From Thermoanaerobaculia bacterium (lineage in GTDB: Bacteria; Acidobacteriota; Thermoanaerobaculia; Multivoradales; UBA5704): 62,544 bases of DNA. Shown in pieces: positions 14,678-42,520 of the stretch. Position 1 is the stretch's first letter. Every line of letters begins with the position of its first letter. The notes under the pieces were generated by a model. It saw only the letters and a program-made list of their open reading frames with translations, was not told the DNA's origin and searched no databases. The translations under genes were made by a program, and so were the position numbers. The DNA is taken from the NCBI GenBank assembly GCA_044226625.1, contig JBGAGQ010000035.1:1-62544 (forward strand), written 5' to 3'.

Positions 14678-14810
14678 GGGGATGGCGGGGATTGTCCGCC
14701 GCATCCGGAAATCCGTCAAGGGGCGGAACTCCCGAATCGCTCGCCCCGAAACGTCCCGTTCCGGCACTCCTTCAAAGAGAGGTCCAACGAATGAGAAGGA
14801 GCCATCGTCC

Positions 14811-16442: not shown

Positions 16443-16491
16443 CGACGAGAGGGCATCGTCCTTCGGCCCTCAAACCGGCGCAGCCCGGGGC

Positions 16492-25484: not shown

Positions 25485-25661
25485 GAGCGAGGCGGGCCTC
25501 CCGAACCGGAAGGGTGCGCCGAGCCGGAGCACTACAGCGCTTCGACGGAACACCACGGTTTGGCACCGGCTTCACGCTTGCCAAGCCCGCTTCCCCTGGC
25601 TACCCTTGTCGCGACGCAACGCTCGGACCTGGTCCGGACGCCATTTCGGAGGACGCCGCGG

Positions 25662-27581
25662 ATGATTCAGACGGTTCGAGCCCAGACTTCCCTTCTCCTC
25701 TCCGCGCTCGTCGTCGCCTCCGCTTGCAGCTCGAATCCGAAGCCCGCCCCCGTCAAGGTCAGCTACACCGACATCGCCGCGCCCGCCGCGGTAAGCCCGA
25801 AACCGGAGACCGTTGGACCTCCGGCGCCGTCCGGAGCAGCCCTCGCCGCCGCGGCGGCTCCGTCTCCCGACGCCAATCTTCCCGCCGCGCCCGCGCCGCT
25901 TTCGACCCGGGAGATCATCGATCGCTCGATGAGCTGGTCGGTCGAAGGGCTCGGCGCCTACGCGCGGGGCGATTACGCGAAGGCCTACGAGGGCCTGAAC
26001 GGCGCGCGAATCCAATTGCTCGAAGCCGACATGCCCGAGTATTGGAAAGAGCAGGGGCTCGCGGTGCTCCAGGCGGGGTTGCCGCGGGAGTTGCGCCGGT
26101 ACGACCTCGCGGCCGTGTTCGACGAGCTGGAGCGCAATCGCGCGAACCAGCCGACCGAGAAGGCGGAAAGCTCCTACATCGAGACCGAGGTCGGCCGCAT
26201 CCTGCGCCGCTTCGGCGAGGTCGATCCGGGCGCTCGCAACATGCCGGAGCTGGTCGCCGAAACCCATCGCTACGTCGATTTCTACCGCGGCCGCGGCCGG
26301 GAGTTCTACGAGCGCGCGCACCTGCGGAAACGGAAGTACTGGCCGACCATCCGTGAGGTCTTCGCCGCCCGGAACCTCCCCGTCGAGCTGGGTTACGTCG
26401 CAATGGTGGAGAGCGGGTTCAACCCGCGCGCGGTGTCCCACGCCAACGCCAACGGCCTGTGGCAGTTCATCCCCGAGACCGGGCGCCGGTACGGCCTTCT
26501 CGAGGCCGCCGACTTCTACGACGTCAGGAAGTCGACCGCCGCGGCGGCCGAGTACCTGATCGACCTGCTGAGCATCTTCGGCTCCCCGTCGTTCCTGCTC
26601 GCGACCGCGTCCTACAACGCGGGCGAGGGGAAGATCGTCTCCTGCCTGCGCCAGATCGACGATCCGTTCGAGAAACGGACCTTCTGGGAGATCCGCGGCT
26701 GCCTCGCGAAGGAGACGCGCGAGTACATACCACGCATCCTCGCCGCCGCCGTGATCGGCTCGAATCCGGCCCGGTTCGGTTTCGCCCTGCCCAGCGACGA
26801 GGAGATCGACCGCCGGTTCGACACCGTGGAGATCGCGCTTCCGCAGCCGCTCGCGCGCCTGGCCGAGCTGGCCGGGGTGGCGGTCGAGGACCTCCGCGCC
26901 GCCAACACCGAGATCTCGTCGGCCTCCGATTGGACGCCGGGCCGGAACTTCCCTCTCTACGTGCCGCACGGCGCCGGACAGCGCCTGGCCGAAGGGCTCA
27001 CCACCCTGCCAGCCGATCTCCCCACCGCCTCGGGACCGGAGGAGACGCGGTTCGCGGACGTCCGACCGAGCTCGCCGATGCGCTACAAGGTGCGGCGCGG
27101 CGACACGCTATCGAAGATCGCCGAGCGGTTCGATTCGAGCGCCCAGGAGCTCGCGCAGCGCAACAAGCTCCGGAAGCCCTACCGGCTGCAGGTCGGCCAG
27201 AGTCTGGTGGTCGGCGAGCAGAAGTCGGCGGCGACCCAGTCCTCCTCCAACGGCGCCGGCGAGGCGAGCCATACCCTCGTGTTCACCGTCCGGCGCGGCC
27301 ATACGTTGTCGGAGATCGCCGAGCTGTTCTCGGTCGACACCCGAGAAGTCATGCGCTGGAACCGCCTTTCGGGATCCGACCTCACGGTCGGCCAGAAGCT
27401 CACGCTCCACCCGAACCGCGTTTACCGCACCCGCACCCACCAGGTCCGCCGCGGCGAGAAGATCTCGTCGATTGCGCGAAAATTCGGGGTCTCGGTGGAG
27501 AGCATCCGGATGGCGAACGGCCTCGGCCCGGGCGAAGCGCTGCGGGCGGGTCAGCGGCTCACGGTGTACGTACCATCCTAA
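25662..27581 (+). CDS. MltD-like lytic transglycosylase lipoprotein with LysM repeats
   Basis: Lipobox ASAC; VESGFNPRA, GLWQF, SYNAG, ETREY; three clear LysM (VRRGDTL, VRRGHTL, VRRGEKI) plus one degenerate. Confidence 0.92.
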   Translation: MIQTVRAQTSLLLSALVVASACSSNPKPAPVKVSYTDIAAPAAVSPKPETVGPPAPSGAALAAAAAPSPDANLPAAPAPLSTREIIDRSMSWSVEGLGAYARGDYAKAYEGLNGARIQLLEADMPEYWKEQGLAVLQAGLPRELRRYDLAAVFDELERNRANQPTEKAESSYIETEVGRILRRFGEVDPGARNMPELVAETHRYVDFYRGRGREFYERAHLRKRKYWPTIREVFAARNLPVELGYVAMVESGFNPRAVSHANANGLWQFIPETGRRYGLLEAADFYDVRKSTAAAAEYLIDLLSIFGSPSFLLATASYNAGEGKIVSCLRQIDDPFEKRTFWEIRGCLAKETREYIPRILAAAVIGSNPARFGFALPSDEEIDRRFDTVEIALPQPLARLAELAGVAVEDLRAANTEISSASDWTPGRNFPLYVPHGAGQRLAEGLTTLPADLPTASGPEETRFADVRPSSPMRYKVRRGDTLSKIAERFDSSAQELAQRNKLRKPYRLQVGQSLVVGEQKSAATQSSSNGAGEASHTLVFTVRRGHTLSEIAELFSVDTREVMRWNRLSGSDLTVGQKLTLHPNRVYRTRTHQVRRGEKISSIARKFGVSVESIRMANGLGPGEALRAGQRLTVYVPS

Positions 27582-27632: not shown

Positions 27633-28055
27633 TCAGTCCAGACAGAGGGTGACGCTGTCGCCGACGGCGTGGGGCTCCCGCTCGAGCGTCCGTACACGCC
27701 GCTCGTCGAGCTCCTCCTCTCCCGCGGTTGCGAAGGCCGAGCAGCGCAGGACGTCCTCCTCCAGACCGAAGAACCGCGCCGCGTCGGCGAGCGAAGGCCG
27801 AGCGCCGGGACGGGGGGCCATCGCGGGAACGATCTTGACGACGGCCCGCGTGCGCGGCAGCTCGCCGGCGCTGGCCGTGGCGAGCGGAGCCCCGCCGGAG
27901 AGAACCCCGCGCGGGGGGTAGTAGCCGAGATCCAGGAGCGCCGCGGCGACGAGCAGGCCCAGGGCGGCTAAACCCAACACCGCCACGCGCGAGATCGGGA
28001 GCCCTTCCGGCGGGCTCTCGGCCTCGGCCTCGTCACCAGCCGTTCGTGAGCGCAT
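27633..28055 (-). CDS. Small membrane-anchored protein with degenerate LysM-like domain
   Basis: TM VAVLGLAALGLLVAAALL; SLADAARFFG....L...GDSVTL pattern; last gene of operon; start uncertain. Confidence 0.6.
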   Translation of the reverse strand: MRSRTAGDEAEAESPPEGLPISRVAVLGLAALGLLVAAALLDLGYYPPRGVLSGGAPLATASAGELPRTRAVVKIVPAMAPRPGARPSLADAARFFGLEEDVLRCSAFATAGEEELDERRVRTLEREPHAVGDSVTLCLD

Positions 28056-30861
28056 CGCTCAAGACCTCCTCGATCAGCTTGCCGGCAAACGGCACGGCGA
28101 TGGTCGGTCCCTTGCCTTGGCCTTCGATCACGATCGCGACCGTGAGCGCCCGCTTCGGCGCGCGGGAGATCACGTCGACCTTCGGCAGCTCCGCGCCTCC
28201 GCCGCCACGCCGAGCCGCCGCATCCCAGGCGCCCATCGTAAAGACGTAGGCGGCTCCCACCGATTCGATCTCACGGCGGCGGAGGGCGCGCACCAGACGG
28301 CCCCCCCGGCGCTCGAACTGCACGCGGTCTTCCGGCTTGCTGTCGTTCCAGCTGTCGCACGCCTGGATCACCGATCGGGAGGAGACGCCGAAGCGGCGGA
28401 GCACCGCGAGATCGCCCGCGTTCGCCCGCAGCGCGTCGAGCGAGCGGGTCGCCCGCCCCTCCTCCGTCCGATCGGCGTCGACCGGACCGGCATCGCGGTA
28501 GACGATTCGATCGGCTCCGTCCAGGGTGAGGGCGCGCCGTGCGATCAAGGCGTCGAGCGCTCGCGCTAGGCCGGTCGAGACGTACGTGACGTTGTCGGGC
28601 GAGCCGGTCTTCGAGAAGAAACCGAGAACTTCGCCGCGCGCCGCGATCCGGGCGCCGAGCGCGCGCAGCTCGGGAGCGAGCGCCGCCGCCGTACCACCCG
28701 GCCCCGCGACGAGCGTCATCGCGTCGGCAAGCCGCTGCCTCGTCGCCGGTGCGAGATCGAGGTTGGCGAGCTTCGCGGCCTGCGGCTTCGCGGCTTCGTC
28801 GCCATCTTCGGCCCCCTCGGGACGGACGCGGCGCACCAGCTGCGGCTCGATGCGCTTTCCGGTGATCAGGCGCGAAAAGACGCTCGCGATACGCGGCATC
28901 GTCCAGGTCGACTCGCCGCCGCCGAGAACCAGCGAAAGGTATTCGCGCCGGTAGTCGTCGATCAGGTTGAGAGCGAGGTTCTCCCGCTCGGGCGAGGCGC
29001 CCCGGAAGGTCGTCTCCTTGGGCAGCCGATCGCCGTAGAGCTGGGCGAGCACCGGCCGCCAGATCGAGGTGTCGATCAGGTCGTCCCCTTCGCTCGGCGC
29101 CCAACGCTCCGCGGAGTGCTTGGTCGTGAACGGCACGCCGAACAGCCGCCGCAACGACGCGGCGAAGTCGCGATGCTCGAGCGTGATGATCCGACCGCAG
29201 GCGGCCAGGCGGGCGAGCTCCGGGTCCTTCGCGCCGGCATTGGAGACGATCGGGAGATTGAGACCGGGGCGACGGTCGTGCTCGGTCCCTCCGAGCGCGA
29301 AGCGTTCCTCCGGATCGAGCTGCTCCGGGATCTCGGGGTCGCCCACCGGCGGGAGCAGGCCCGTTCGCGCCTCGTCGACTCCGGTGGCGAGCGTGAGGAG
29401 CGTCGCGCCGTACTTGTTCGACGAGTGCTCGATGAACTCTTCGAAGTCGATCCAGCCGTCCGAGCCACCCCCGATCGAGTGATCCTCGAGCGGCGGATCG
29501 AGCGCGATGCCGAGAACCTGATCGAACTTGCCTTCCGCGTAGCCGCGGATCCGTAGGTCGGCGAGAAACGGCGCGCGATCCAGGATCGCCGCCGCGAACG
29601 GGACCTTCGCCACCGAGCCGATGGGCAGGCGCGAGAAGTTGTGATTGCGCAGCCACCGCGCCCGCGAGCGCTCGCCGTCGCCGTAATCGCCCAGCTGCTC
29701 GGCCGTGGGATAGCTCGCGAGCGCGAGCAGCTCCCCGGTCGTCGCATCCATCACCGTCACGGCCGCCCGGAACGGCGGCTCGGTCCGGCCGCGCAGGGTG
29801 CGAGCGTAAGCGTCCAGCTCGCGTTGCACCTCGGCGGCGAGCCGCGCGTCGAGGGTAAGGGCGAGGTCGAAGCGCTCGCTTCCTGGCGCGGGCGCCTGAT
29901 CCGGCGGACGATGGAGGGCGGCGTCGATCGCTGCGAGCATGTCCGCGGCGATCGGTGGATCGGGGCGTTCGGGAATGCGCCGGAAGCGGCCGTTGATCGG
30001 CCGGAAGACCGAGATCGGCGGCGCCTCGCCGAGGACCGAGCTCCAGAGCAGCGCGTACTGCGAGCCTCCGCCGAGGCGCCAGCGCAGCTTGAGCAGGTCG
30101 CCCGAGTCGATCCGCGCATGGCTCCCCTGCCGGACCTCGTCGCCGCTGATCGAGACCTCGACGCCCGCGGCCTGGCTCCGGTGGTTGAACAGCAGGGCGT
30201 CGCCGATCCGGTTCACCGTGCCGAGAAAAGCGCCGCCGCGGCCCGAGAGCTTCACCTTCTCGGCCTGAACCGCGCGCGGCGGCGTCCGGCTGGAGGCGCT
30301 CGTTCCTTCCGGCGCGCCGTCGTCGCCGCCCGCGCGCAAGGTGACCTCCGGGGGGTTCTCCAGTTGCCGCAGCGCCTTCGTCGGACCGACCAGCTCGAGC
30401 GCCACACCGCCGCCGCGCAGCTCGGCGATGCGGGTGAGGGTGGGCCGATAGGTCAACGCGCCGGTCCAGGCGCGCGACTCGGAAAACGGCAACGCGATGC
30501 GATGCCGCGACGGATCGAGGCCGAAGATCTGGTCGTTCTCGACCGAGAAGATCGCCCGATCCCCGGCGTTGAAATCAGCGACGTCGCGCGCGAGGTGGGA
30601 GCGCAGGAAGAGCTCTTCGATCGGCGTGCCGGCGAATTTCGGTTCGAGCTCGATGGTGCGCGATTCGGGTCGATACCGTAGCCAGCCGTGATGGATGTAG
30701 AGCTCGGCGGTTTCCCGGTACCCCTCCGGATCGTGGTAGGCCGGCAACGATTCGGCGCGCGACAATCCCAGGTAGGCCACGCGACCGAGCCAGGCCGCGA
30801 GCCAAACACCGAGAAGGAGGAGCACGGCGAGCGCCGCGCGGCGGTGGGCCGGAGCGTTCAC
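28033..30861 (-). CDS. Divergent class-B-like penicillin-binding transpeptidase with large N-terminal domain
   Basis: N-terminal TM; LTLD..L, VMDATTGELLALASYP, SxxK (GSVAK), SxN (SSN), KTG (SKTGS); GTG overlaps upstream stop. Confidence 0.85.
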   Translation of the reverse strand: MNAPAHRRAALAVLLLLGVWLAAWLGRVAYLGLSRAESLPAYHDPEGYRETAELYIHHGWLRYRPESRTIELEPKFAGTPIEELFLRSHLARDVADFNAGDRAIFSVENDQIFGLDPSRHRIALPFSESRAWTGALTYRPTLTRIAELRGGGVALELVGPTKALRQLENPPEVTLRAGGDDGAPEGTSASSRTPPRAVQAEKVKLSGRGGAFLGTVNRIGDALLFNHRSQAAGVEVSISGDEVRQGSHARIDSGDLLKLRWRLGGGSQYALLWSSVLGEAPPISVFRPINGRFRRIPERPDPPIAADMLAAIDAALHRPPDQAPAPGSERFDLALTLDARLAAEVQRELDAYARTLRGRTEPPFRAAVTVMDATTGELLALASYPTAEQLGDYGDGERSRARWLRNHNFSRLPIGSVAKVPFAAAILDRAPFLADLRIRGYAEGKFDQVLGIALDPPLEDHSIGGGSDGWIDFEEFIEHSSNKYGATLLTLATGVDEARTGLLPPVGDPEIPEQLDPEERFALGGTEHDRRPGLNLPIVSNAGAKDPELARLAACGRIITLEHRDFAASLRRLFGVPFTTKHSAERWAPSEGDDLIDTSIWRPVLAQLYGDRLPKETTFRGASPERENLALNLIDDYRREYLSLVLGGGESTWTMPRIASVFSRLITGKRIEPQLVRRVRPEGAEDGDEAAKPQAAKLANLDLAPATRQRLADAMTLVAGPGGTAAALAPELRALGARIAARGEVLGFFSKTGSPDNVTYVSTGLARALDALIARRALTLDGADRIVYRDAGPVDADRTEEGRATRSLDALRANAGDLAVLRRFGVSSRSVIQACDSWNDSKPEDRVQFERRGGRLVRALRRREIESVGAAYVFTMGAWDAAARRGGGGAELPKVDVISRAPKRALTVAIVIEGQGKGPTIAVPFAGKLIEEVLSDALTNGW

Positions 30862-33797
30862 GCGGCCTCCTCCGGGATCGGGGTGGGCGCGGGCGACGCG
30901 CTCTCCTCGAGCCGATCCGGCGCGGGTCCGAGCGCCCAGAGGGCGAGGAGGACCAGGAGCGCCCCCTCGACCGCATCCGACAACGAGGAGGCGGCGAGGA
31001 AGTAGATGTTCTTGCCGGTGAACAAGAGCAGCTCGACGTTGGCCGACAGCATGTAGAGCGCCGCGAACGAGAGCGTCCAGAGGAGGAGCAAGCCCCAAGC
31101 CGCGCGCGGCGGGAGCGAAGAGAGATCCGGCGCGCCCGGGGCTCCCGGCGCGCCCGCGACCGAGAGGGCGATCCAGCCGGCGAACAGGAGGAGCAGCGCG
31201 AGCGCGCCGACCCAGCCGAACGGCCCGAGCAGGTGGACTGCGCTCAGGTTGTCGTTCAGATGGGTGGCCGATAGCGGCACCGCCAGCGGCACCGCGAGAT
31301 ACCCCTTGCCGAGCGGCCCGCGCGCGGCATAGGCGCGCAGGTTCTCCATTACGGTCAGGAACCCTTCGGCTTCGGTCGTGCCGAGGCGTTTGAGCTCTTC
31401 CGGCGCGAGCCGGCTCCAGAAGCGCAGGTCGTTCCGTTTGACCTCGACCTTCTTTTCCACCAGCTCGGCGGCTTTCTCGGGGTCGGCGCGCGCCTCCTCG
31501 AAGGTCGGCAAGGGGCTCCAGTTGGGGGTCGCGGGGAGGGCGAAGAACAGGATCGCGAGCCCCAGGGGGACGGCGAGCAGCGCGTTGCGCACGCCCGGCC
31601 GGACCGCGAATGGCAGCGCGAACAGCAGGAGCGGCGGCAGCGAGAAGATCAGGATCGAGCCCAGGTCGCGCGCGAGGAACGGGACCAAGACGAAGAGCAG
31701 GCCGAGCAGGATCCAGGTCTGGGCCACCGCGACCGCGCTCCGTTTCGGACTTCTGGCCCCCGGATTTCGACCTGGGCCGAGCCGTGAGGCGAGCGCCATC
31801 GCGAGCAGCGCCCACGGAACGTAGAAGATGCTCACCGCGAACCGCGGCCCGAGGTCGATCCGCTCCTTCCATCCGAAGGCGTAGAGTGCGAAAAGCCGCC
31901 AGACCAGCAACGTCCCCGCCACCCAGAGAAGGGCTCTCGTGCCCTCGCCCCGCGCCTCGGTCGCGGCGAAAAACCGCGCGAGACGCGGCAGGAGCCAACG
32001 GCCGAAGAGCAACGGCAGGACGAGCGCGAAAGCCAGGGCCAGAGCGATCGACGGGAGTTCGACTCCCGCCCGGCCGAGCGCGATCGCTCCCGCCGAAAGA
32101 GCGATTGCGGCGTAGGCGATCCCGGCCGAACGAAGGTCCCGAGGAGATCCCGCGTCGCTCTCTTGCCCTCCGGAGGCGAGAAGGAGGGAGACCTGAACCG
32201 CGAACGGCACCAGAGCGAAGAGCGCGAGCGCCTCCCAGGCCGAGGAGGCCGAGGCGGGATCGAGATACGCCCCCTCGTAGGCGATCAGGGCGCGGAGCGC
32301 CAACAACACCTCCATGCCCGTGAGGACGGCGAACGGCAGAAGGCGGCGCCGGAGCGGCGCCGCCGCGAGGGCCGACGCGAGCGCCACCGCCGCCGCGAGG
32401 GGAAGAGCGCCCCAGGGCGCACCGAGCCGGGCGACGCGAACGATCGCCGCCGAGTCCTCTCCGAGCGGAAACGCCGCGCCGAGCGGATAGGCGCGCAGGC
32501 CCGAATGGGTCGTCACCTCGAGCCGGGTCGCGCCCTCCGCTGGGGGCTCGATGCGGCTGAACAGCTCGGCTCCGAGCGGCTCGCCGACCGCGGCGAACGA
32601 GAGGAGCATCTCTCCCGCGCCGGCGTAGAGCGCGTAGCGCTCGGGCGCGAGCGACAGGAGCGGGCGCCCCCCCTCCGCCCGGGCGCGCCGGGCGAGGTCG
32701 ACGAGGTCGCTACGCTCGATCTGCACGTAGGTCGGGGTATCGAAGGCCAGGCGCAGGAAACCGTCGCGCTCGAAGCTCGCGCGGAAGCTCCGCCGCTCCT
32801 GGGCGCGGCTGGGAGGACGCAGCCGTTCGCCTCCCTTGAGACCCGCGACGACGTGCGCCCAGACCCCCTTCGGCTCGGGCTCGGGCGCGGCGGCGTCTTC
32901 CAGGTCGATCCGAAAGAGCGACAGGCGGAGTGCCTCCCCCCGGCGCAGTGTCGCGACCGTGGAGCGAAACTCGGTCGGCGCGCCGCCGGCTTTCGGTACG
33001 ACGCGCGCCCCCGATTCGGTGAGGGCGAGGTAGACGCCACGCCGGAAATACCCGCCGCCGCGATAGGCGAACCCGCCGAGCGGGCGCCCTCCCGGACCCA
33101 GCACCGGCCGCGCCGGATCGACCGCGGCTAGCTCGCGTAGCGGAAAGATCGCCAGCTCCGGAGGCAGCTCGCGGCCGATTCCGAAGCCGAGCGCCCCGCG
33201 GCGCGACGGCAGGGACGGCCCCGCTCCAGACGCTCCAGAGAACCCGAGTCGCGAGGCTTCGAAAGTGAGCGGCTTGACCCCCGGAATCTCGAGCCGGTCG
33301 CCGTCCGCGAGGCGCACCGAGCCGAAGAACGGCTCGGCGGCGCAGGGCCAGACACGACAGGTCCAGGGGCGTTCCCCGGGGCGTGCTCGCACCGCTCCGA
33401 CCGCCACGCGGGCCGCTCCCTCGTCGTCGCCGGACGGCGGGCCGAGATCGGGATGGACGTCGATCCGGACGTCGGCTCCCTGCGAGGTGAACGTCAGAAA
33501 GCCCGACGGAAGGCCCGCGACGACCAGCGCGTCCTGCTCTTTGTCCCCGCCGATCCGCACGGTGCGCGGTTCGGTGGGATCGAACCGGAAACGGAGCCCT
33601 TCGAGCGAGATCCGAAGGTCGCCGAAGCGCGCCTGCGCCGAGAGCACCACGCCGAGGAGCAGCAGGGGCGCCACCGCCGCGGCGAGCGCCTGGAGCGCGC
33701 CTCCGACCGGCTCGCCGCGCCGTGAGCTGCGGTAAGCCAACAGCCAAAGGGCGAGCAGCAGCGCGATCGAGGCGGAGAAGGCGATCGAGGAGAGCAT
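30858..33797 (-). CDS. Divergent FtsW/RodA (SEDS) glycosyltransferase with a large N-terminal soluble domain
   Basis: Many C-terminal TMs; RDLGS, GPLGKGY, HLND..(HTD-like), FGWVG, LLLFTGKNIYFL..SS; paired with downstream PBP. Confidence 0.78.
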   Translation of the reverse strand: MLSSIAFSASIALLLALWLLAYRSSRRGEPVGGALQALAAAVAPLLLLGVVLSAQARFGDLRISLEGLRFRFDPTEPRTVRIGGDKEQDALVVAGLPSGFLTFTSQGADVRIDVHPDLGPPSGDDEGAARVAVGAVRARPGERPWTCRVWPCAAEPFFGSVRLADGDRLEIPGVKPLTFEASRLGFSGASGAGPSLPSRRGALGFGIGRELPPELAIFPLRELAAVDPARPVLGPGGRPLGGFAYRGGGYFRRGVYLALTESGARVVPKAGGAPTEFRSTVATLRRGEALRLSLFRIDLEDAAAPEPEPKGVWAHVVAGLKGGERLRPPSRAQERRSFRASFERDGFLRLAFDTPTYVQIERSDLVDLARRARAEGGRPLLSLAPERYALYAGAGEMLLSFAAVGEPLGAELFSRIEPPAEGATRLEVTTHSGLRAYPLGAAFPLGEDSAAIVRVARLGAPWGALPLAAAVALASALAAAPLRRRLLPFAVLTGMEVLLALRALIAYEGAYLDPASASSAWEALALFALVPFAVQVSLLLASGGQESDAGSPRDLRSAGIAYAAIALSAGAIALGRAGVELPSIALALAFALVLPLLFGRWLLPRLARFFAATEARGEGTRALLWVAGTLLVWRLFALYAFGWKERIDLGPRFAVSIFYVPWALLAMALASRLGPGRNPGARSPKRSAVAVAQTWILLGLLFVLVPFLARDLGSILIFSLPPLLLFALPFAVRPGVRNALLAVPLGLAILFFALPATPNWSPLPTFEEARADPEKAAELVEKKVEVKRNDLRFWSRLAPEELKRLGTTEAEGFLTVMENLRAYAARGPLGKGYLAVPLAVPLSATHLNDNLSAVHLLGPFGWVGALALLLLFAGWIALSVAGAPGAPGAPDLSSLPPRAAWGLLLLWTLSFAALYMLSANVELLLFTGKNIYFLAASSLSDAVEGALLVLLALWALGPAPDRLEESASPAPTPIPEEAA

Positions 33798-33820
33798 GCG
33801 AAGTGTCCGGAGCGCGAAGC

Positions 33821-35803
33821 CTATCCCGCCGAATCGGGACGCCGGCCGATCGCCTGGTCGCGCGCGAGCCCTTCGGCGTAGGCGCTCGCGAAAGCGCGCC
33901 GATGGGCGAGGACCAGGCCGCGAGCCCAGAGAGGCGCGGCGAAGAACAGAAAGCCGAGCACGATCTCCACCGCCCACGGCCAGGCGTTGCGGAACCAACA
34001 GCCCACCTCGCCGAAGAAGCCCCCGCGCGCGAGATGGCGAATGCCCGGGGGGAACGCCGGATCGTCCGAGACGAAACGGCGGATCGTCCGCGCCTTGCCA
34101 GGCTCCCCCGGCTCGAGCTGGGCGGCGCGGGCGAGAGCCCGGTTGCCCAGCTCAGCCATCGCGTCCGCCCGCCAGGCGAGGAAGAAATCGCGCGAGATCC
34201 CGCGCAGGCCGAGCGCCCGGCCGAACTCCCGCTCGAAAGCCGGCAGCTCCCCTTTAGCGAGCAGATTCCGCCACAGATGGAGGAACAGCCAGTCGTCGAG
34301 CGTCGATTCGGTCGCCGCGGTGAACGCCGCGCCCATCGGGCGGAACTCGACCGGCCGCACGCCACCCGGCAGCTCGATCTCCCGGTCGGGGGGATAGAGC
34401 TTGCGGAACAGGGCGCGCGGCAAACTCGGCTCGCCGCGCGATGCCGAAGCGGCCCGTGGGCCGCGTCCAGCGAGCACCGCGGCCGCCGCCGCGAGCCGGT
34501 CGAGCCGCGCGGCGTCCGCCGGCACGAGCGACGTCGAGCTCTCCTGCGCCTGGGCGAGGTAGCTCGACGCGGCCTCGAACTCACCGAGCTGGGCCAGCAG
34601 GGCGCCCAGGTTGTAGAGCAGATGCGGATCGTCCAGGGTCGCGGCCGGGTTCTCCGCCGTCCAGTCGATCGCGTTCGACAGCGCCCAGAGCAGGTTTTCC
34701 TCCTCCCAGGCTCGGGCGTCCCCCCGGTAGTAGCGGTCGAACCGCTCGCGGAAGAGACTGTCGAACGGCGGAGCCGAGCGTTTGAGGCTGCGGCAGAAAC
34801 CGCGGTCGCGGTAGCTCTTCTCGTCTCGGCCGCTCTTCGGCAGAGGATCGCAGGAGATCGGCTTGGGCCGCTCGTCGCTCCGATGGAAGCCGGGGCTCGA
34901 AAGGTAGCCGCCGATCAGGTCGCTCGCGAGCGATCCGGTCGACAGCCCGGTCGGCGGCAGACGAAAGACCTGGAGCGCCGAGGCGACGCCGGGAAACTCG
35001 GCGGGACATTCGTCGGTCGCGTGATAGAGCTCGACCAAGGCCCAGGAGAGGGAAAGCATCGCGCCCTCGCGGGCTTCGGCCGACGCCGAGCCCCCCGCCG
35101 CTCCGGTGACCGAACCGGCGATCCGGAGCTGCGCGTGTCCGAGCGCGTAACGCGTCGACAGGCTCGCGAGGTAGAGCGGCGTCCGGCCGCATCCGGAAGG
35201 GACGGCGCGAATCGCCCGGTCGATCGTCTTCTTGGCCCCTTCGAGCTCGCGCGCCGCCGCTCGCGCGTTGCCGCGACGCAGGTAGAGGACGCCGCGGTCG
35301 TAGTCGATCTGCCACGAGCCCGGTTGGCTTCGGCGTGCCAGACCGAGCAGGTCGATGCCCCGGTCGATCCGTTCTTCGAGCTGCTCCGGGTCTTCCGCCC
35401 CGGCGTCCTCCGCCGGATCGGGCAGGGTCCGAAGCTCGGCGAGCGCGGTGTCGAGCGCCGCCAGTGCCTCGGCGGTCGGCGGGCGCAACGCCGGGTCGGA
35501 CGGTACGTCCGTCCAGAGCAGGATTCGCGCGGCCAGCAAGGGTTCTCTCAGACGGAATTCGCGCTCGATCCGGGCGCGCTCGGTCGCGGTGGTCGCCGGG
35601 AAATCGGCCCAAGGCCAGGCGAGACTTCCGGCGAGCGGCGACGGACGACCGTCGAGCCGCAAGGTTCCCCGCGCGACGAAGGAACGCAGGCCGAAGAAGG
35701 CGGCGAGCGAGAGCGCCATCGCCACCAGGGCCAGGGTCCAGGCGAACGTCGAAGCGCGACGCTCGGTTCGGGCGAAGGCGCCCAAGGGGGTGCGAGCGCT
35801 CAA
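33821..35803 (-). CDS. TPR-containing membrane protein, Cys-rich extracytoplasmic domain
   Basis: N- and C-terminal TMs; TPR-like YDRGVLYLRRGN..AA and YNLGALLAQLGEFEAA; TTG start overlaps upstream TGA. Confidence 0.7.
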   Translation of the reverse strand: MSARTPLGAFARTERRASTFAWTLALVAMALSLAAFFGLRSFVARGTLRLDGRPSPLAGSLAWPWADFPATTATERARIEREFRLREPLLAARILLWTDVPSDPALRPPTAEALAALDTALAELRTLPDPAEDAGAEDPEQLEERIDRGIDLLGLARRSQPGSWQIDYDRGVLYLRRGNARAAARELEGAKKTIDRAIRAVPSGCGRTPLYLASLSTRYALGHAQLRIAGSVTGAAGGSASAEAREGAMLSLSWALVELYHATDECPAEFPGVASALQVFRLPPTGLSTGSLASDLIGGYLSSPGFHRSDERPKPISCDPLPKSGRDEKSYRDRGFCRSLKRSAPPFDSLFRERFDRYYRGDARAWEEENLLWALSNAIDWTAENPAATLDDPHLLYNLGALLAQLGEFEAASSYLAQAQESSTSLVPADAARLDRLAAAAAVLAGRGPRAASASRGEPSLPRALFRKLYPPDREIELPGGVRPVEFRPMGAAFTAATESTLDDWLFLHLWRNLLAKGELPAFEREFGRALGLRGISRDFFLAWRADAMAELGNRALARAAQLEPGEPGKARTIRRFVSDDPAFPPGIRHLARGGFFGEVGCWFRNAWPWAVEIVLGFLFFAAPLWARGLVLAHRRAFASAYAEGLARDQAIGRRPDSAG

Positions 35804-37053
35804 ACGCGGGCTCCGCGCCGCGCGCCGGCGTCCACCCGGCGCCGCAGCCAAAGCGGCCGGCCGGTCTCGAGATCGCCCGACAACAGCCCCCGTAGGACGC
35901 CGCCCCAACCTCCGCGCTCGACCTCGAGCTGGCGGTCCAACCAGTCGAACATCTCGACCACGCCGTAATGCGGCCGCGAGTAATCGACCCAGCCGTCGAG
36001 CCCCTCGTGACCGAAGAACGAGCTCACGAAATCGAAGCGGAAGCGAGTGAACCGATTCTCGATCGCCGCGGCGAGCACCGGCAGTCCGGCGATCCCGAAC
36101 GAGAACGGATCGTCCACCGGCTCGGCGCGGTCCAATCGATCCGCTTGGGAAAGCGCGACGAACAGCGGCTCGGACAACCGCGGACCCGGGCGGGCGCGGA
36201 TCGCCCGCAGGTCGTCTTTCGAGATCCCCTGGGCGAGAAATGCCTTGGGACCGAGCCTTGCGAGCCCCTCCTTGGCGAGGCGGATCGCGTCGATCAGGTC
36301 GTAGAACGACTCGGAGAGAGCGGCGACCTTCATCCGCTCCGCGACCGTGCCCCCCGCCGCGCGCGCCAGATGCTCCGCCTCGATGACGAAGATGTAGGCG
36401 CTCGCGCAGGCGAGCGCGGTCAAATACGAGCGGACGCCGATCCCCGACAGGCTCGCCCGGGTCGACTGCTCGTCGAACGCGCGTTGGAAGCTCTCTCCCG
36501 CGCAGTCGACCAATACGTAGGGGCTTCCGGATCCAGTGCGGGCGGGGTTGACCTCCGTGAGCCAGAGCCCCTCCGGCGTCATCTCGATCGTCTCCTGCTT
36601 GCGCGGGTGGACCGCCCAACGTCCGCCTCGGGGCAGGGCCTCGCGCAGGCGGTTGATCAGAAAGGTCTTGCCGCTCGCGCCGAATCCGATCACGGCGACG
36701 ATGCGCCGGCTCTCGCCAAAGGCGGTAAAGGTCTCCAGGTGGTTCGGGTCGAGCTCCTGGTCCGCCTCGGCCGCATCGTCTTTCGGCGGGGCCGACGCCT
36801 GGATCTTCGCCCCGCCGGCCGTCTCGTTCGAAGGGAAGGGCCCCGTGCGCGGTGGGCGCCCCGCGAGAGGCGGAGGAGCGAGATGCGACAAGACCACCGC
36901 GCGGGTCGCGGTATCGGCGGCCGAAGCGGCGGACGAGGCGGCAGGCGAAGCGGCGGACGGCGTCATCCGGGGGCGACCTAGCGTCGCCCCGCAGTGCTGG
37001 CAGACCTCGGTCCCCGCGGAGTTCAGCGTGCCGCACTCCGAACAGGTGATCAT
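35800..37053 (-). CDS. Zinc-ribbon plus TRAFAC-class P-loop GTPase (double-GTPase-family-like)
   Basis: CSECG...CQHCG; G1 GFGASGKT, G2 T, G3 DCAGE, G4 SQAD, G5 VSS, C-terminal GV.E.FDWL; SD GGAGG. Confidence 0.78.
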   Translation of the reverse strand: MITCSECGTLNSAGTEVCQHCGATLGRPRMTPSAASPAASSAASAADTATRAVVLSHLAPPPLAGRPPRTGPFPSNETAGGAKIQASAPPKDDAAEADQELDPNHLETFTAFGESRRIVAVIGFGASGKTFLINRLREALPRGGRWAVHPRKQETIEMTPEGLWLTEVNPARTGSGSPYVLVDCAGESFQRAFDEQSTRASLSGIGVRSYLTALACASAYIFVIEAEHLARAAGGTVAERMKVAALSESFYDLIDAIRLAKEGLARLGPKAFLAQGISKDDLRAIRARPGPRLSEPLFVALSQADRLDRAEPVDDPFSFGIAGLPVLAAAIENRFTRFRFDFVSSFFGHEGLDGWVDYSRPHYGVVEMFDWLDRQLEVERGGWGGVLRGLLSGDLETGRPLWLRRRVDAGARRGARV

Positions 37054-37099
37054 CGATCCCTCCGATTCGATCGCATCTCGAGCCGCCAAGTAGAACGCG

Positions 37100-39199
37100 T
37101 CAGAGTCGCGACGCGCGCGGGGTCAGCGCTTCCAGCCAGATCAACACCGGCCACCCCTTTCCGCGCAGGGCGGATTCTCTCGCATCCCGGCAGGCCGCTG
37201 CACGAATCGCCGCGAGCACACGCGGCTCGAAACGAGGCAAAGGGCCGAGCGAACGCCCGAGGAGAGCCGCCGCGCGGACCGCGCGGGCGGTGAGGCCCGT
37301 CGGGCACGCCGCGAGGAGCGCGGCGAGCGCCGCCAGGAGAGGCGCGCGATCTACCTCGACGCGGCGAGCCCCCGAGCCAATCAGCTCGAGCGCGGTACGA
37401 GCGAGGCGGTCGCCGGGGCGCTCCGGTGCGGCGAGGCGGTCCGCAACCCGAGTCGCCAGACGCTCGACGATCCGCGCCCGCTCGGGCCGGCGCGCGAGGT
37501 CCCACGCGGCCGAGCCGGTGCCGACGGAGCGCGCGGCGATCGCGAGGAGCGCCTCGAGCACCGGATCGGGCAGGGCGGCGAGGCGATCGTGGTCGAGCAA
37601 CTGAGGAAAGCTGGCCGCGAGCTCCGGGAGGAGAGGCAGCAGTTCCTCCGCGCCCATCGAATCGAGCAACCCTTCCTGGCCGGCGATGCGGGCGGCGAGC
37701 GCAGAGGGCACCCGCGTGCCCAGATCCTTCCGCAGGAGATGAAGGTAGGCGAGGAACCAGGCGCGCCTCTCCCCCGCCGGACCCGAAGGGGCCGCCCGTT
37801 CGACCGCCGCGAGGGCCGGCTGCAGAGCCACGTCCACGGGAAAGCTCGCGAGCGAACCCAAGATCGAGGGAAGCGCGGCCGGGCCATCCGCTTCACGGAG
37901 AGCGGAGAAATACGAGGTGAGGAAGGGCAGGGCGAACCCGGGCGCCGATACGAGCAGCCGCTCGATCCAGGTCGGGCCGTCCCCCCGAGCGAAGGTCCCC
38001 ACGGCGCGCAGGAGATCCGCGTCGCGGGCCGCGAGCGCGACCGCGATCCGGGCGGTCCGCGCGGCGAGCCCGCCTTGGCCCGCGAGCTCCGCGACCAGGT
38101 CTCCGGGGTCCACGGTTGCGATCGACTTTTCGCTTTCGGCGAACAGGCCGGCCGGATCGCCCGCGTCGAGCGCCGCTCTCGCGCTCTGCTCCAGACCATG
38201 GGCGAGAAGGCCGACCACCAGGCCGCCGAGGCGAGGAAGGGCGGCGTTCGCCGGGTGGCGCGCGATCTCGACGTCCCGGGCATCGGCACGGCGCAAGGTC
38301 TCCTCAACGAGACCCGGGGACGGCCCTGGCTCCCCGTCCTCCGGCAACGCCTGGAGGAAGCGGACTCTGGCGATCGCCCCCGCCGGATCGGCGAGCAACG
38401 ACAGGCCCGACACCGGCTCGATGCCGACCGCCGCGGCGGCGAGCCACTCGCGGATCGGCTCCGACGCCGCGTCACCCTGGATGTCGGCGCCCAAAGGCCG
38501 GACTGCGCCGCGGAGGAAGCGCTCGGCGAGCGCTCGGTCGTCGGGCACGAAGGCGGCGAATCGGTACGGCAGGGCGCGAGGCTGGCAGAAGCGGGACGTG
38601 AAGGAGAGCGCCGCCCGGTCCTCCGGCGGCACGGTGGAAAGGACCGACCGGCAGACCGCGACGGCGAGCGCTCCGTCGGCGACGGGCACGGCGAGCGGCC
38701 CCGCCAGGAGAGCGGAGAGGAAGGGCGCGAGCGCGTCGAGCTCGATTCCGGCCGGGCGATCGACGCCGCACGGCCGGCGCGACGCGACCTCGAACCGCGC
38801 GGGTTCGACCTCCGGAGCGGGAAGGTCGTCTCCTTCGGGCTTCGCATCGCTGAACCAACCCGCATCGGCGAGCAGGAAGAGATCGCCCCGCAGCGTCTCG
38901 AAGAGAACTCGGGAGAGGATCAGGGCGTGGGCGAGATATTCGTTCCCTCGCGCGCCCCGACCGAGCACCGTCGCGCGAAGGAACGCATGGCGCCCCCGGG
39001 AGGCGTCGAGGGGAAACGCGGCGTAGATCGGCTCGACCGTGGCGGCGGTGAGCGCCGTGCCCCCAAGATTTGCGTGCTGCTCCAACAGATCGCGCTCGGC
39101 GCGGCAGACGCCAGGGGACGCCGCGAGGAGGCGGTAGTCGCGGTCGCCCGAGCGAGAGCCGTAGATCGCCTGATCGAGGCGGAAGTCCGACGAGCCCAC
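37100..39199 (-). CDS. GTPase-associated protein 1 (GAP1-N2-like N-terminal domain plus alpha-helical extension)
   Basis: DQAIYGS...YRLLAASPG...GRGARGNEYLAHALIL; middle LSFTS segment; adjacent to GTPase; start uncertain (GTG 39199). Confidence 0.65.
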   Translation of the reverse strand: MGSSDFRLDQAIYGSRSGDRDYRLLAASPGVCRAERDLLEQHANLGGTALTAATVEPIYAAFPLDASRGRHAFLRATVLGRGARGNEYLAHALILSRVLFETLRGDLFLLADAGWFSDAKPEGDDLPAPEVEPARFEVASRRPCGVDRPAGIELDALAPFLSALLAGPLAVPVADGALAVAVCRSVLSTVPPEDRAALSFTSRFCQPRALPYRFAAFVPDDRALAERFLRGAVRPLGADIQGDAASEPIREWLAAAAVGIEPVSGLSLLADPAGAIARVRFLQALPEDGEPGPSPGLVEETLRRADARDVEIARHPANAALPRLGGLVVGLLAHGLEQSARAALDAGDPAGLFAESEKSIATVDPGDLVAELAGQGGLAARTARIAVALAARDADLLRAVGTFARGDGPTWIERLLVSAPGFALPFLTSYFSALREADGPAALPSILGSLASFPVDVALQPALAAVERAAPSGPAGERRAWFLAYLHLLRKDLGTRVPSALAARIAGQEGLLDSMGAEELLPLLPELAASFPQLLDHDRLAALPDPVLEALLAIAARSVGTGSAAWDLARRPERARIVERLATRVADRLAAPERPGDRLARTALELIGSGARRVEVDRAPLLAALAALLAACPTGLTARAVRAAALLGRSLGPLPRFEPRVLAAIRAAACRDARESALRGKGWPVLIWLEALTPRASRL

Positions 39200-39206
39200 G
39201 TAGCTC

Positions 39207-40346
39207 TCAACCCTGCGGCGCGAGCGCGAGCGCGCCGAGCGCGGCATAAGAAAAAGCGAGGTAGGCCTCGGCGGGGCTCTTGCCGTCGAACCGAAGCCCC
39301 TCGACCTCGAGGCATGCGCCGACCGCGTTCAGCACGATGAACGTCGTCGGTCCGGCGCTCCCGTCCGGTTTGAACTGCGACGGCTGGACCCTGCCGAGGT
39401 CCGCGTTCGGGCACCAGGGGAGCCCCGAACGATCCGTGCTCAGGAGGAGCTTCCGCGCCAGCGCCTGCGCAGCGAAGACGGCGGCGTTCGGGGTTCCCTT
39501 GGCGAGGGCAAAACGTTCGCTCACGCAGGGCGCGAAATCGCCCGGGAGATCTCCGTCGAGTCGTCGCTGCCGGTGGTCGAGCCGTTCGCGCGTCGAGCGC
39601 GGGAAGAAGCATTCGAGCTGCGCCTCCGCGGACTCGGACGAGAGCGGCGACCCGCCCGGCAGGGTCGCTCGGGCCGCGCGGATTTCGCGCAGCCACACGG
39701 CATCGAGGTCGGCTCCGGACGTCGCGCTCCCCGAGCCTTGAGTCGTTTCGGAGCTCTCGACTCTCGCGGAATCCGCCGCGGAGCCGCCCGGATCCTGAGG
39801 GCCCGAAGACCGATCCTTGAGCGCACCGCCGTCCCCCGAGGTCGAGCCGTTTTCGATCGCCCGCGATCGAGAGGTTCCTCGGCCGGCGAATCGGTCATAG
39901 GCGAGCCAGGTGGCTCCCGCCGTCACGAGGACCAGACAACCGGCCAGGAGCCAAACGATCCAGCTCCGCTCGCGCAGTCCGCCCGGGAGCCAGCTCCCTT
40001 CCTCCCGACGCTCGTTCCAGCCCCCGCGCGGACCGCGCCGCGAGGGGCTCGCCGCGGGCCCCGACCCCTCCTCGGCCAAGGAAATCCGGTCTCGCGAATC
40101 GCCCGCCGGCCTGCCGTACGTCTCGGACCCGAGGTGGCGCGCCTCCTCTCGGAGCGCCCGCTTCTGCCTCGATACGACCTCGCGAAGCGCCGCCTCGACC
40201 TTCGACTCCAGCTCGCGCCGAAACTCGGGTCGCGCCAGCTCCTCGCCGAGAACTCGGCGCACTACCGCCACGAGCTCTCGCTCGAGGGCGCGCGCGTCGT
40301 CCTCGTAGATTTCGTCCTCCGGATCGTCCATCCCGCGTCGGCTCAT
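39207..40346 (-). CDS. Bitopic membrane protein with Cys-containing extracytoplasmic domain and PG-binding-like DGxxGPxT motif
   Basis: Charged helical N-terminus, TM SWIVWLLAGCLVLVTAGATWL, Ser/Gly linker, PDGSAGPTT. Confidence 0.65.
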   Translation of the reverse strand: MSRRGMDDPEDEIYEDDARALERELVAVVRRVLGEELARPEFRRELESKVEAALREVVSRQKRALREEARHLGSETYGRPAGDSRDRISLAEEGSGPAASPSRRGPRGGWNERREEGSWLPGGLRERSWIVWLLAGCLVLVTAGATWLAYDRFAGRGTSRSRAIENGSTSGDGGALKDRSSGPQDPGGSAADSARVESSETTQGSGSATSGADLDAVWLREIRAARATLPGGSPLSSESAEAQLECFFPRSTRERLDHRQRRLDGDLPGDFAPCVSERFALAKGTPNAAVFAAQALARKLLLSTDRSGLPWCPNADLGRVQPSQFKPDGSAGPTTFIVLNAVGACLEVEGLRFDGKSPAEAYLAFSYAALGALALAPQG

Positions 40347-40450: not shown

Positions 40451-42520
40451 ATGACTTCGAAGACCGGTTCGCCGTCCGGCCCTCCCTCCGCTACCGATCC
40501 CCGCGCGCGCGCCGCGGAGCTCGCGACCTTGATCCGTCATCATGACCATCTCTACTACGTGCTCGACCGGCCGGAAGTGTCGGATGGGCAATACGACATC
40601 TGGTTTCGCGAGCTGACCGCCCTCGAAGAGGCGTTCCCGGAGGCCCGGAGCGCCGACTCCCCCACCCAACGCGTAGGAGGCGCACCGGTCGAGAGCTTCC
40701 CCACGGTCGAGCACGCGGCGCCGATGCTCTCGCTCGAATCGGACAACGCCGAAGCCTCGCTCCGCCGCTTCGACGAGCGGGTGAGGAAGGGCCTCGGACC
40801 GGAGACGCCCGTTCGGTACGTGCTCGAGCCGAAGCTCGACGGTCTGTCGATCGAGCTGGTCTACCAAGACGGGCTGCTGGTCCAGGCGGCCACCCGCGGC
40901 GACGGATTCCGCGGCGAAGGGGTGACCGAAAACGTCCGGACGATTCCGGCGGTTCCGCTGCGCCTGCTCGGCAATGAGCGGCCGATCCCGCCGTCGCTCG
41001 CCATCCGCGGCGAGGTGATCATGCGGAACGCCGAGTTCGACAAGCTGAACGAGCGGCTGGTGGCGGCGGGCGAGGAGCCGTTCGCCAACCCGAGGAACGT
41101 CGCGGCCGGGGCGATCCGCCAGCTCGACCCCAAGCAGACCGCGGCCAAGCCGCTCGACATGTACGCGTACGATGTCCTCTCCTTTGGTGGCGAGGACGCG
41201 CGTCCCGCGGACATCCGGTCGCAGAGGGACATCCTCGCGGCGCTCTCGGCCTGGGGCTTCCGGGTGAGCGACCGGATCTCGACCGGCGATGACGTCGAGG
41301 CGATCCTCGCCTACCACGCGGCGACGGAGAGCGATCGCGACGACCTCGGCTACGAGATCGACGGCATCGTGATCAAGCTCGACGACCTCGCCCAGAGAGA
41401 GACGCTCGGCTTCACCGCTCGCCATCCGCGCTGGGCGTTCGCCTACAAGTTTCCGCCGAGGAAGGAGATCACCCGGATCCTCTCGATCTTCCCCTCGGTC
41501 GGCCGCACCGGCGTGGTCACCCCGGTCGCCTTCCTACTTCCCGTCGAAATCGGCGGGGTCACGGTCGCGCGCGCCACGCTCCATAACCGCGAAGAGGTCG
41601 CGCGGAAGGATGTGCGGGAGGGAGACCGGGTGCGCATTCAGCGCGCGGGAGACGTGATCCCGCAGGTCGTCGAACGGATCGAAGAGCCCGACCGCGAACG
41701 GAGCGAGCCGTGGCGGATGCCCGCAGACTGCCCGTCCTGTGGCACCTCGTTGATCGAGAGAGGTCCGTTCACGGTCTGCCCGAACAGTTTCGAGTGCCCG
41801 GCTCAGCTGGTCGGTCGGATCGTCCATTTCGCCTCGCGCAACGCGCTCGACATCGAGGGTCTAGGGGACGAGAGCGCCAAGCTGTTCGCGACTCAGGGGC
41901 TCGTCCGCCAGCTCCCCGACCTCTTCGCGCTGCAAAGCGAACAGATCGCTTCGCTCCCTGGGTTCGCCCAGAAGTCCGCGACCAAGCTGGTCGAAGCGCT
42001 GGCGCGGGCCCGCAAGACCGAGCTCGCCCGCTTCCTCTATGCCCTCGGCATCCCGGAGGTCGGGACCGCCGTCGCGCGCGATCTCGCGCGACACTTCCGT
42101 ACCTTCGAGCGCCTCCGTTCGGCGAGCGCCGACGAGCTTCAGGGGATTACGGGCGTCGGACCGCGCATGGCCGAACAGATCCTCGCCTTTTTCGCCGAGC
42201 CTCGGATCGCCGAGGTCTTGGACGACCTGCGGCGCTTGATCGAGCTGGCGGAGGTCACGGCGCCGCCTCCGGCCGCGGCAAGCCCGCTGTCGGGTAAGAA
42301 ATTCGTCTTCACCGGCGGCCTCGAGAGCCTGTCGCGCGATCAGGCCAAGGAGCGGATCGAAAAGCTGGGTGCCAAGGCGGTGTCGTCGGTGAGCAAGGCG
42401 ACCGACTACGTCGTGGTGGGAGTCGATCCCGGCTCGAAGGCGGACGACGCCGCTCGGCTGGGAGTAAGGACGCTCGACGAAGCCGGCTTCCTCGCTCTCC
42501 TCGACGAGACCGAAACCTGA
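40451..42520 (+). CDS. ligA: NAD-dependent DNA ligase
   Basis: YY..D.P.VSD..YD, EPKLDG, TRGDG, FANPRN, AYKF, C4 zinc finger, HhH, BRCT. Confidence 0.98.
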   Translation: MTSKTGSPSGPPSATDPRARAAELATLIRHHDHLYYVLDRPEVSDGQYDIWFRELTALEEAFPEARSADSPTQRVGGAPVESFPTVEHAAPMLSLESDNAEASLRRFDERVRKGLGPETPVRYVLEPKLDGLSIELVYQDGLLVQAATRGDGFRGEGVTENVRTIPAVPLRLLGNERPIPPSLAIRGEVIMRNAEFDKLNERLVAAGEEPFANPRNVAAGAIRQLDPKQTAAKPLDMYAYDVLSFGGEDARPADIRSQRDILAALSAWGFRVSDRISTGDDVEAILAYHAATESDRDDLGYEIDGIVIKLDDLAQRETLGFTARHPRWAFAYKFPPRKEITRILSIFPSVGRTGVVTPVAFLLPVEIGGVTVARATLHNREEVARKDVREGDRVRIQRAGDVIPQVVERIEEPDRERSEPWRMPADCPSCGTSLIERGPFTVCPNSFECPAQLVGRIVHFASRNALDIEGLGDESAKLFATQGLVRQLPDLFALQSEQIASLPGFAQKSATKLVEALARARKTELARFLYALGIPEVGTAVARDLARHFRTFERLRSASADELQGITGVGPRMAEQILAFFAEPRIAEVLDDLRRLIELAEVTAPPPAAASPLSGKKFVFTGGLESLSRDQAKERIEKLGAKAVSSVSKATDYVVVGVDPGSKADDAARLGVRTLDEAGFLALLDETET

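Follow-up and report, generated by a model that had tools for sequence, protein, structure and literature searches.

Pairs formed by a SEDS protein and a class B penicillin-binding protein (bPBP) are core builders of the bacterial wall and major antibiotic targets, and the pairs known so far owe their organisation to FtsZ/FtsA, to MreB/RodZ or to sporulation. SpoVE-SpoVD provides a precedent for an extra, dedicated pair. A different group of described systems centres on DO-GTPases and GTPase-associated protein 1 (GAP1), which have been put forward as predicted 'GTPase-centric' conflict systems (Kaur, Burroughs, Iyer and Aravind, eLife 2020, PMC7159879); in the sections of that paper available to us, DO-GTPases are TRAFAC GTPases with a conserved Walker-B glutamate and often an N-terminal zinc ribbon. 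Here we analyse a stretch of 62,544 nucleotides from a Thermoanaerobaculia bacterium (contig JBGAGQ010000035.1 of assembly GCA_044226625.1; the whole stretch is referred to as the window), in which a block of seven genes, A to G, at 27633-40346 holds components reminiscent of both groups. A GAP1-family protein (B) and a zinc-ribbon GTPase (C) are encoded directly before a two-pass membrane protein (D), a SEDS-like membrane protein (E) and a protein related to bPBPs (F). The original prediction, made on the letters alone, of a GAP1/GTPase pair beside a dedicated SEDS-PBP pair holds as an architecture: the GTPase is conserved next to E and F elsewhere, and the housekeeping pairs of this genome are encoded separately.

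Protein F is, as judged from its sequence, a divergent class-B-type penicillin-binding protein with intact active-site motifs. The Pfam Transpeptidase family (PF00905) matches F with 26.5 bits, above the cut-off of 22.1, and the SxxK, SxN and KTG motifs (S416xxK419, S480xN482 and K751-T-G753) are invariant across 20 sequences, which bears out the PBP label that the original prediction had given to F. When a profile of the F family was compared with the PDB, class B PBPs were retrieved at E-values from 7.5e-8. The AlphaFold2 (AF2) model of F (pLDDT 77.1) contains a mixed helix/beta N-terminal region at residues 45-330 and gave 380 Foldseek matches at E<=1e-3; those listed were PBP/transpeptidase structures, mostly of class B, with C. 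difficile PBP2 at the top (3.1e-13). A single transmembrane (TM) segment is placed at residues 7-33 by hydropathy. PBP_dimer (PF03717) was not matched in Pfam, and the score of F against TIGR03423 pbp2_mrdA, 46.6 bits, is far below the cut-off of 455.

A complex model of E (residues 455-979) and F (residues 1-340) gave an ipSAE of 0.78 (median of three runs), while the best of three controls reached 0.01. The 0.78 mark is reached by 58 of 80 solved complexes and by 2 of 110 mismatched pairs. Contacts agree to at least 89% between runs, with a partner pLDDT of at least 53. In the model, the F TM segment (residues 5-36) packs against helices 862-882 and 914-923 of E, and F residues 43-127 contact E 766-841. 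PBP2 sits on RodA in the same arrangement, contacting TM8/TM9 and loop 4. The pass may reflect this likeness, because RodA-PBP2 and FtsWI complexes have already been solved. A search among longer proteins (1715-4895 aa) with E 540-979 found no match to a fused E-F form, which is weak evidence on whether such fusions exist.

In the AF2 model (pLDDT 75.9), E begins with two TM helices, which are followed by ~400 aa forming a beta-rich domain and then by a membrane domain made of helices. We found that the membrane domain is a very divergent one of SEDS type (RodA/FtsW fold), on the basis of fold, profile-profile comparison and language-model features. Foldseek matched E to RodA (8tj3_B, 6pl5_A, 6pl6_A) and FtsW (8p1u_A, 8bh1_A) structures with probabilities of 0.99-1.00 and target-normalised TM-scores of 0.47-0.51. 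A local hhalign comparison of E with 30 canonical SEDS sequences, taken from this genome and 15 relatives, gave 88% at an E-value of 3.2e-6 over 182 columns. In the ESM Atlas, E stands next to large FtsW/RodA-family clusters (0.93, with 174-178 shared features), and all matches shown were such clusters bar one unnamed. The motif D711-x-G713 is invariant in E and aligns with the Asp-x-Gly motif of canonical SEDS proteins, and the Thr-Gly preceding the Ser-Tyr-Gly-Gly position is likewise invariant in the E family. At D849, the family alignment holds D or E in 18 of 18 rows (by eye), and hhalign aligns this residue with the Asp in Thr/Ser-Asp-Phe, a motif of canonical SEDS proteins. D849 would thus correspond to D297 of E. 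coli FtsW, an equation made via the motif and not via alignment to E. coli FtsW, since in the available part of PMC8765783 this putative catalytic residue follows H295 and T296 in extracellular loop 4 (ECL4). An E-family profile found 692 clusters (50% identity) at E<=1e-3 among 1.84 billion representatives, 377 of them at E<=1e-30; with 692 clusters in all, canonical SEDS proteins were therefore not reached.

The genome, which is 97.9% complete, carries its canonical synthases elsewhere. A whole-genome scan with PF01098 identified exactly two genes, on contigs C34 and C123. The first encodes a 361-aa FtsW, with a Mur-ligase-like open reading frame (ORF) before it and a MurG-like ORF after it (by eye), and on the second, RodA directly follows PBP2. 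PF00905 matched six genes in the genome, the window F being the weakest. Separate canonical FtsW/FtsI and RodA/PBP2 pairs are thus present on other contigs, as the original prediction had wished to see confirmed. The cassette itself was found in 11 of 301 sampled Acidobacteriota genomes (6 of 274 among those of high quality). It occurs in six of the eight genomes of the window's genus, where the two negatives are 85% and 89% complete, in neither of two sister genera (0/2) and in none of 12 genomes examined from other families of the order. Other loci were found in Gemmatimonadota/Longimicrobiales, Wenzhouxiangella and 'Multivoradales', and one carrier was found among 151 genomes of the Pseudoduganella family, the named strain Pseudoduganella umbonata CECT 7753. 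Because canonical FtsW-FtsI and RodA-PBP2 are encoded elsewhere and the cassette is patchily distributed, E-F is not a housekeeping pair; the patchy distribution is of the kind shown by accessory, transferable modules.

A pattern scan with one genome per species yielded 29 related loci (designated L with a number); the family alignments are shallow, at 10-23 sequences. F follows E in 28 of the 29. Six loci are cut off upstream of E; among the 23 that extend far enough, iterated profile searches located a co-oriented GTPase gene ahead of E in 22. The GTPase-bearing loci span several phyla, with ~20-30% identity between lineages, and the conservation of the GTPase beside E-F that the original prediction relied on was thus confirmed. 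GAP1 was detected in 13 of the 22 GTPase-bearing loci, nine by jackhmmer and four (L019, L021, L022 and L031) by hhalign, where the pre-GTPase proteins matched the B family at 98.3% with an E-value of 2.6e-14. D homologues were found in 15 loci, and G homologues immediately after F in 10. Even distant lineages keep the gene set together as a unit. At L022, the order is bitopic protein, GAP1-like protein, GTPase, TPR protein, E and F, which is the six-gene order of the window, with ~20-30% identity to it, 4-nt overlaps and the same weak Pfam hints. In P. umbonata (L026), a 918-aa protein encoded directly before E runs from a zinc ribbon and GTPase through a TM segment and ~370 aa to a second TM segment, and thus joins C and a D-type protein in one chain; the five genes of this locus gave no Pfam match at E<=0.01. 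When compared with L009, the window proteins show identities of 55% (A), 63% (B), 73% (C), 74% (D), 74% (E), 83% (F) and 67% (G), and the flanking LigA 85%. On these figures, the enzymes are constrained about as a housekeeping gene is, and A and B drift faster.

Several further observations were made at these loci. E is spread over several frames at L018 (9884-12876) and at L028 (5258-7135), by either a frameshift error or real decay. After F in L026, on the same strand and across a gap of ~0.9 kb, lies a gene for a dCache-HAMP-PAS-GGDEF diguanylate cyclase (14126-17230, plus strand). L020 (Thermoanaerobaculaceae) is the one locus with a second C-family paralogue near the cassette; this GTPase gene lies ~2.3 kb upstream of the first cassette gene on the opposite strand (1-865, minus strand, the same as L073 15115-17155, minus strand), is split over two frames and has no B, D, E or F homologues beside it. 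A second GAP1-N-like fragment at the start of L019 (5-415, minus strand) hints at a neighbouring paralogous GAP1 gene.

By sequence comparison, B and C are a pair of a GAP1 protein and a zinc-ribbon GTPase with a Walker-B glutamate. C matches Pfam Zn_ribbon_3 at 9e-6, and in an alignment of 13 sequences four cysteines, G123, G128-K129, D183..G186-E187 and D305 are invariant. DO-GTPase2 matches seven of these 13 C-family members (best E-value 1.2e-3). Hydropathy gave no hydrophobic segment and no TM helix for C, and this genome encodes one GTPase of the C family. For B, the ten aligned orthologues include seven that match GAP1-N2 (best 9.1e-10), seven that match GAP1-N1 (best 3.3e-5) and two that match GAP1-M (best 1.3e-5), these being the three GAP1 families reported for them; GAP1-C was not among the matches.

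The topologies of the membrane proteins rest on hydropathy and a reading of the charged flanks. In D, a large middle domain separates two hydrophobic segments (17-44 and 607-633) and would be extracytoplasmic if the protein obeys the positive-inside rule; D matches TPR_8 at an E-value of 5.8e-4, below the Pfam cut-off. A consists of a charged N-terminal part of ~125 aa, one TM segment (127-150) and a C-terminal domain of ~230 aa, in which C246, C274, C312 and C345 are invariant across nine orthologues. Bitopic first genes of similar layout were seen by eye in L026 (N-terminal part, one TM segment and a C-terminal part with several Cys) and in L022 (one TM segment and a C-terminal part). G has one TM segment at 18-47. 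Five of the seven labels of the original prediction stand, namely GAP1-like, zinc-ribbon GTPase, TPR membrane protein, SEDS-like and PBP. The other two do not. A had been called peptidoglycan-binding-like, and it matched nothing in Pfam or NCBIfam, gave no usable Atlas match and, at E<=10 in a PDB profile search, met nothing relevant, the matches being to MIP/PPIase proteins and confined to its N-terminal helical part. G had been called LysM-like, and neither Pfam nor NCBIfam gave a match at E<=0.1.

Table 1. Genes of the cassette, with positions in the window.
Gene	Position	Strand	Length (aa)	Product
A	39207-40346	-	379	Bitopic membrane protein; family not recognised
B	37100-39247	-	715	GAP1-family protein (GTPase-associated protein 1), probably cytoplasmic
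C	35800-37089	-	429	N-terminal zinc ribbon and TRAFAC P-loop GTPase with Walker-B glutamate
D	33821-35803	-	660	Two-TM protein, weak TPR matches
E	30858-33797	-	979	Polytopic, SEDS-like (RodA/FtsW-fold) membrane domain
F	28033-30861	-	942	Class-B-PBP-like, one N-terminal TM
G	27633-28055	-	140	One TM; family not recognised

The ORF list confirms that the block is filled by seven co-oriented genes, all on the minus strand, which are close-packed, overlapping or separated by short gaps (Table 1). For gene E, the open frame extends to 33998, and the 979 aa given here is the length in the database record. The two 4-nt overlaps named in the original prediction agree exactly with the minus-strand sequence: TTGA (35803-35800) joins the stop of C to the start of D, which is translationally coupled to C, and GTGA (30861-30858) joins the stop of E to the start of F. 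F and G overlap by 23 nt, and B and C are separated by 10 nt. Terminator-like sites within the block are not above chance (five observed against 6.3 expected). The block is one operon-like cassette. A look-up of RNA runs covering 28033-37089 returned none, which speaks neither for nor against expression. G+C content is ~65-73% across the window and 0.705-0.731 in the 28-40 kb block, slightly above the flanks (about 0.65-0.70). AT skew is markedly positive across 28001-40000, with a peak of 0.30 at 32-34 kb.

The start of the block lies ~100 nt from the divergently transcribed ligA (LigA 40451-42520, plus strand), and its 3' end faces a lytic transglycosylase gene (25560-27581, plus strand). 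The product of the latter combines an SLT domain with three LysM domains and is MltD-like. A homologue lies just downstream of F also in the distant loci L022 and L028 and in the close relatives L009-L011 and L014; the enzyme may be a partner of the cassette, or the arrangement may merely be retained synteny. An acyltransferase-like ORF was the further neighbour scanned. In line with the original prediction, no mre, mur or fts gene was found among these three flanking ORFs, which are those scanned in a window annotated in part.

The explanation to which we lean, at slightly better than even confidence, is that the cassette specifies an accessory peptidoglycan synthase that is self-contained and is controlled by a GTPase switch in the cytoplasm. 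E would polymerise a lipid-linked muropeptide precursor, and F, docked as PBP2 is on RodA, would cross-link the product. The nucleotide state of C would be set or read by B, and C with B would constitute a nucleotide-dependent switch held at the membrane via D. The state of C could then be passed through the membrane helices of D to its middle domain, which would license or position E-F, a direction of signalling that we assume. Parallels are found in FtsZ/FtsA-FtsQLB/FtsN acting on FtsWI, and in MreB-RodZ acting on RodA-PBP2. A and G would be lineage-specific membrane accessories. Candidate signals for the switch are envelope damage, phage or predator attack, a developmental cue and stress; none of the seven cassette proteins matched any PADLOC defence model. 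The original prediction had suggested that the switch might set off wall synthesis locally, with sealing against phage or predators as one example. A more far-reaching version of this explanation, which is tentative and in our view rather unlikely, sees in the cassette a fourth SEDS-bPBP machine beside the elongasome, the divisome and the spore-cortex pair: a mobile, envelope-guarding effector in which a DO-GTPase/GAP1 switch would replace tubulin-/actin-like filaments as the organiser, and damage or invasion would lead to a local cross-linked wall patch or barrier. If true, this would be immunity or repair through building and not through cell killing.

A number of results weigh against an accessory synthase under GTPase control. 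E matched no Pfam family and no NCBIfam model at E<=0.1, and a PDB sequence profile search with E found no SEDS protein; the 'giant SEDS' of the original prediction is upheld by fold, profile-profile and language-model evidence, while these sequence models are silent. Foldseek E-values for E range from 4e-3 to 4e-2 with none at or below 1e-3, and the best of them, 4.3e-3, is a tie between RodA 8tj3_B and the WaaL structure 7tpg_B. The hhalign comparison with the 30 canonical SEDS sequences gave 48.6% (E-value 2.7e-5) in global mode, and the E alignments behind these comparisons are shallow and membrane-biased. By eye, the E family has other residues at the Ser-Tyr-Gly-Gly positions of loop 5; in E. 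coli FtsW, Y379A and G380A in this motif abolish complementation, according to the available part of PMC8765783. As E does without the canonical motif, its substrate or chemistry may differ. Membership of PF01098 thus fails at the sequence model and at one functional motif, and E is therefore called SEDS-like and not a member of the family. On the side of the switch, C matches DO-GTPase2 at 1.3e-3 with 18.9 bits, below the Pfam cut-off of 27, the window copy of B matches GAP1-N1 alone at an E-value of 0.086, also below its cut-off, and a PF20013 profile search of the whole genome gave no match at E<=0.1. The Pfam check proposed for the GAP1 and DO-GTPase assignments consequently returned weak family matches, with both window proteins short of the cut-offs. 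The related loci add three further points. At L024, E is followed not by F but by a MarR-GNAT fusion gene (10664-11680, plus strand), ~2.9 kb before the contig end. At L028, no GTPase was detectable in ~5.5 kb upstream of E-F; at this locus, the E sequence is distributed over several frames, and the genes upstream point in the opposite direction. In the remaining nine of the 22 GTPase-bearing loci, the large ORF before the GTPase was not detectably GAP1, so that the expected conservation of GAP1 beside E-F was recovered in part. For the proteins encoded before the GTPase in the Longimicrobiales-type loci, L026, L033 and L035, hhalign against the B family gave 0.1-0.3%, and Pfam matched none of those from L025, L026, L027, L032 and L033.

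The properties of E raise an alternative that we regard as quite unlikely, in which E would act as a ligase or polymerase of WaaL/Wzy type on a different undecaprenyl-linked glycan, be it capsule, O-antigen-like or S-layer, and not on peptidoglycan, and F would be a DD-peptidase-fold partner with another role, for instance trimming, anchoring to peptide stems or binding only. The cassette would then serve to make a surface polymer, or to attach one, with the GTPase in control. E has a polytopic membrane fold as WaaL/Wzy enzymes do, and the shared best E-value of 7tpg_B, which is among the top Foldseek matches, the silence of the Pfam/NCBIfam SEDS models, the residues at the Ser-Tyr-Gly-Gly position and the ~400-aa beta-rich domain, which canonical SEDS proteins do not have, would all be compatible with such an enzyme. 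The target-normalised TM-scores, however, favour RodA/FtsW over WaaL, for which the score is 0.35 (probability 0.99), the Atlas matches shown for E are FtsW/RodA-family clusters apart from the one unnamed, and the failure of E to match Pfam at E<=0.1 extends to every family. Moreover, an obligate partner F with an intact triad and a modelled docking like that of PBP2 on RodA fits a peptide-stem substrate. WaaL/Wzy-type enzymes are not known to work with a penicillin-binding partner.

It is also conceivable, and to us improbable, that the signal runs the other way, with the outer domains of E, F and D sensing wall damage or precursors in the manner of BlaR-type sensors of PBP fold and reporting to the GTPase-GAP1 pair. 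The output would then lie outside the cassette, and E and F would be receptors and not synthases. Outer-domain sensing and a role near the membrane have been proposed for GAP1-N2 systems in the available sections of Kaur et al. 2020 (PMC7159879), and the fastest-evolving proteins of the cassette are A and B, as set against F and LigA in the comparison with L009. Yet E and F both retain invariant catalytic residues even between highly diverged sequences, a constraint not required of a pure receptor, F is conserved like the housekeeping LigA, and no effector-type domain was found in the seven proteins (Pfam, PADLOC). That the GTPase/GAP1 genes and E-F are unrelated modules that merely lie side by side in this lineage, as L028 with no detectable GTPase and the nine loci lacking a detectable GAP1 might suggest, is very improbable, given a GTPase upstream in 22 of 23 loci from lineages ~20-30% identical, the 4-nt overlaps that join genes in both the window and L022, and the L026 protein, encoded immediately ahead of E, in which the GTPase is fused to a membrane protein of D type.

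The combination of a GTPase-GAP1 pair with a private SEDS-like/PBP pair is conserved but rare, and was not found described in the literature searched. The main text of PMC7159879, as distinct from its supplementary neighbourhood tables, does not mention SEDS, FtsW, RodA, transpeptidase, penicillin or acidobacteria, and the portions of the DO-GTPase literature available to us make no link to SEDS proteins. No paper on a SEDS protein with a GTPase-associated protein, or on one in a zinc-ribbon GTPase operon, was found in the literature searched, and the word GTPase is absent from the available part of a 2025 survey of morphogenetic synthases (PMC12516126). If the accessory-synthase explanation is true, a pair wired to a small-GTPase-type switch would represent a new regulatory logic for wall synthesis, and would provide the first enzymatically interpretable output for DO-GTPase/GAP1 systems, which have hitherto been computational predictions. 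Current family libraries do not place E among SEDS proteins and barely place F among PBPs, so wall-synthase censuses that use current models would miss both families. As P. umbonata CECT 7753 carries the cassette, experiments are feasible if the strain is available.

When compared with the SEDS-bPBP pairs (RodA-PBP2, FtsW-FtsI and SpoVE-SpoVD), the genes of E and F likewise lie next to each other and overlap, the one specifying a polytopic protein of RodA/FtsW fold and the other a PBP with a single TM segment. F has the SxxK/SxN/KTG set, E retains an acidic residue aligned with the catalytic Asp, and in the model the F TM segment packs on two late E helices, with the N-terminal ectodomain on the loop region before them. 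In contrast to these pairs, E and F are ~940-980 aa long, as against 361 aa for the FtsW of this genome, and E adds two N-terminal TM helices, the beta-rich domain and three more helices before its SEDS-like core. The cassette also departs from them in having no SEDS or PBP_dimer Pfam match and other residues at Ser-Tyr-Gly-Gly, in lying outside a dcw/mrd context and in not being universal (11/301 genomes of the phylum).

The likeness to DO-GTPase/GAP1 systems, as far as these are set out in the available sections of PMC7159879, lies in the zinc-ribbon TRAFAC GTPase with its Walker-B glutamate, the GAP1-family neighbour, the TM partners and the patchy, mobile-looking distribution. The gene order differs, in that GAP1 is upstream of the GTPase here and in the related loci, whereas in the published order it is downstream. 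There is one GTPase here, where the published systems, in the same sections, often have two paralogous copies. Their third component, GASH in the N1 type or an FNIII-repeat protein in the N2 type, was not found: none of the seven matched FNIII or GASH in Pfam at E<=0.1, with no separate comparison of FNIII with the beta-rich domain of E. Unlike the genes of the DO-GTPase/GAP1 systems, those linked to the GTPase and GAP1 in this cassette encode a SEDS-like/PBP-like pair.

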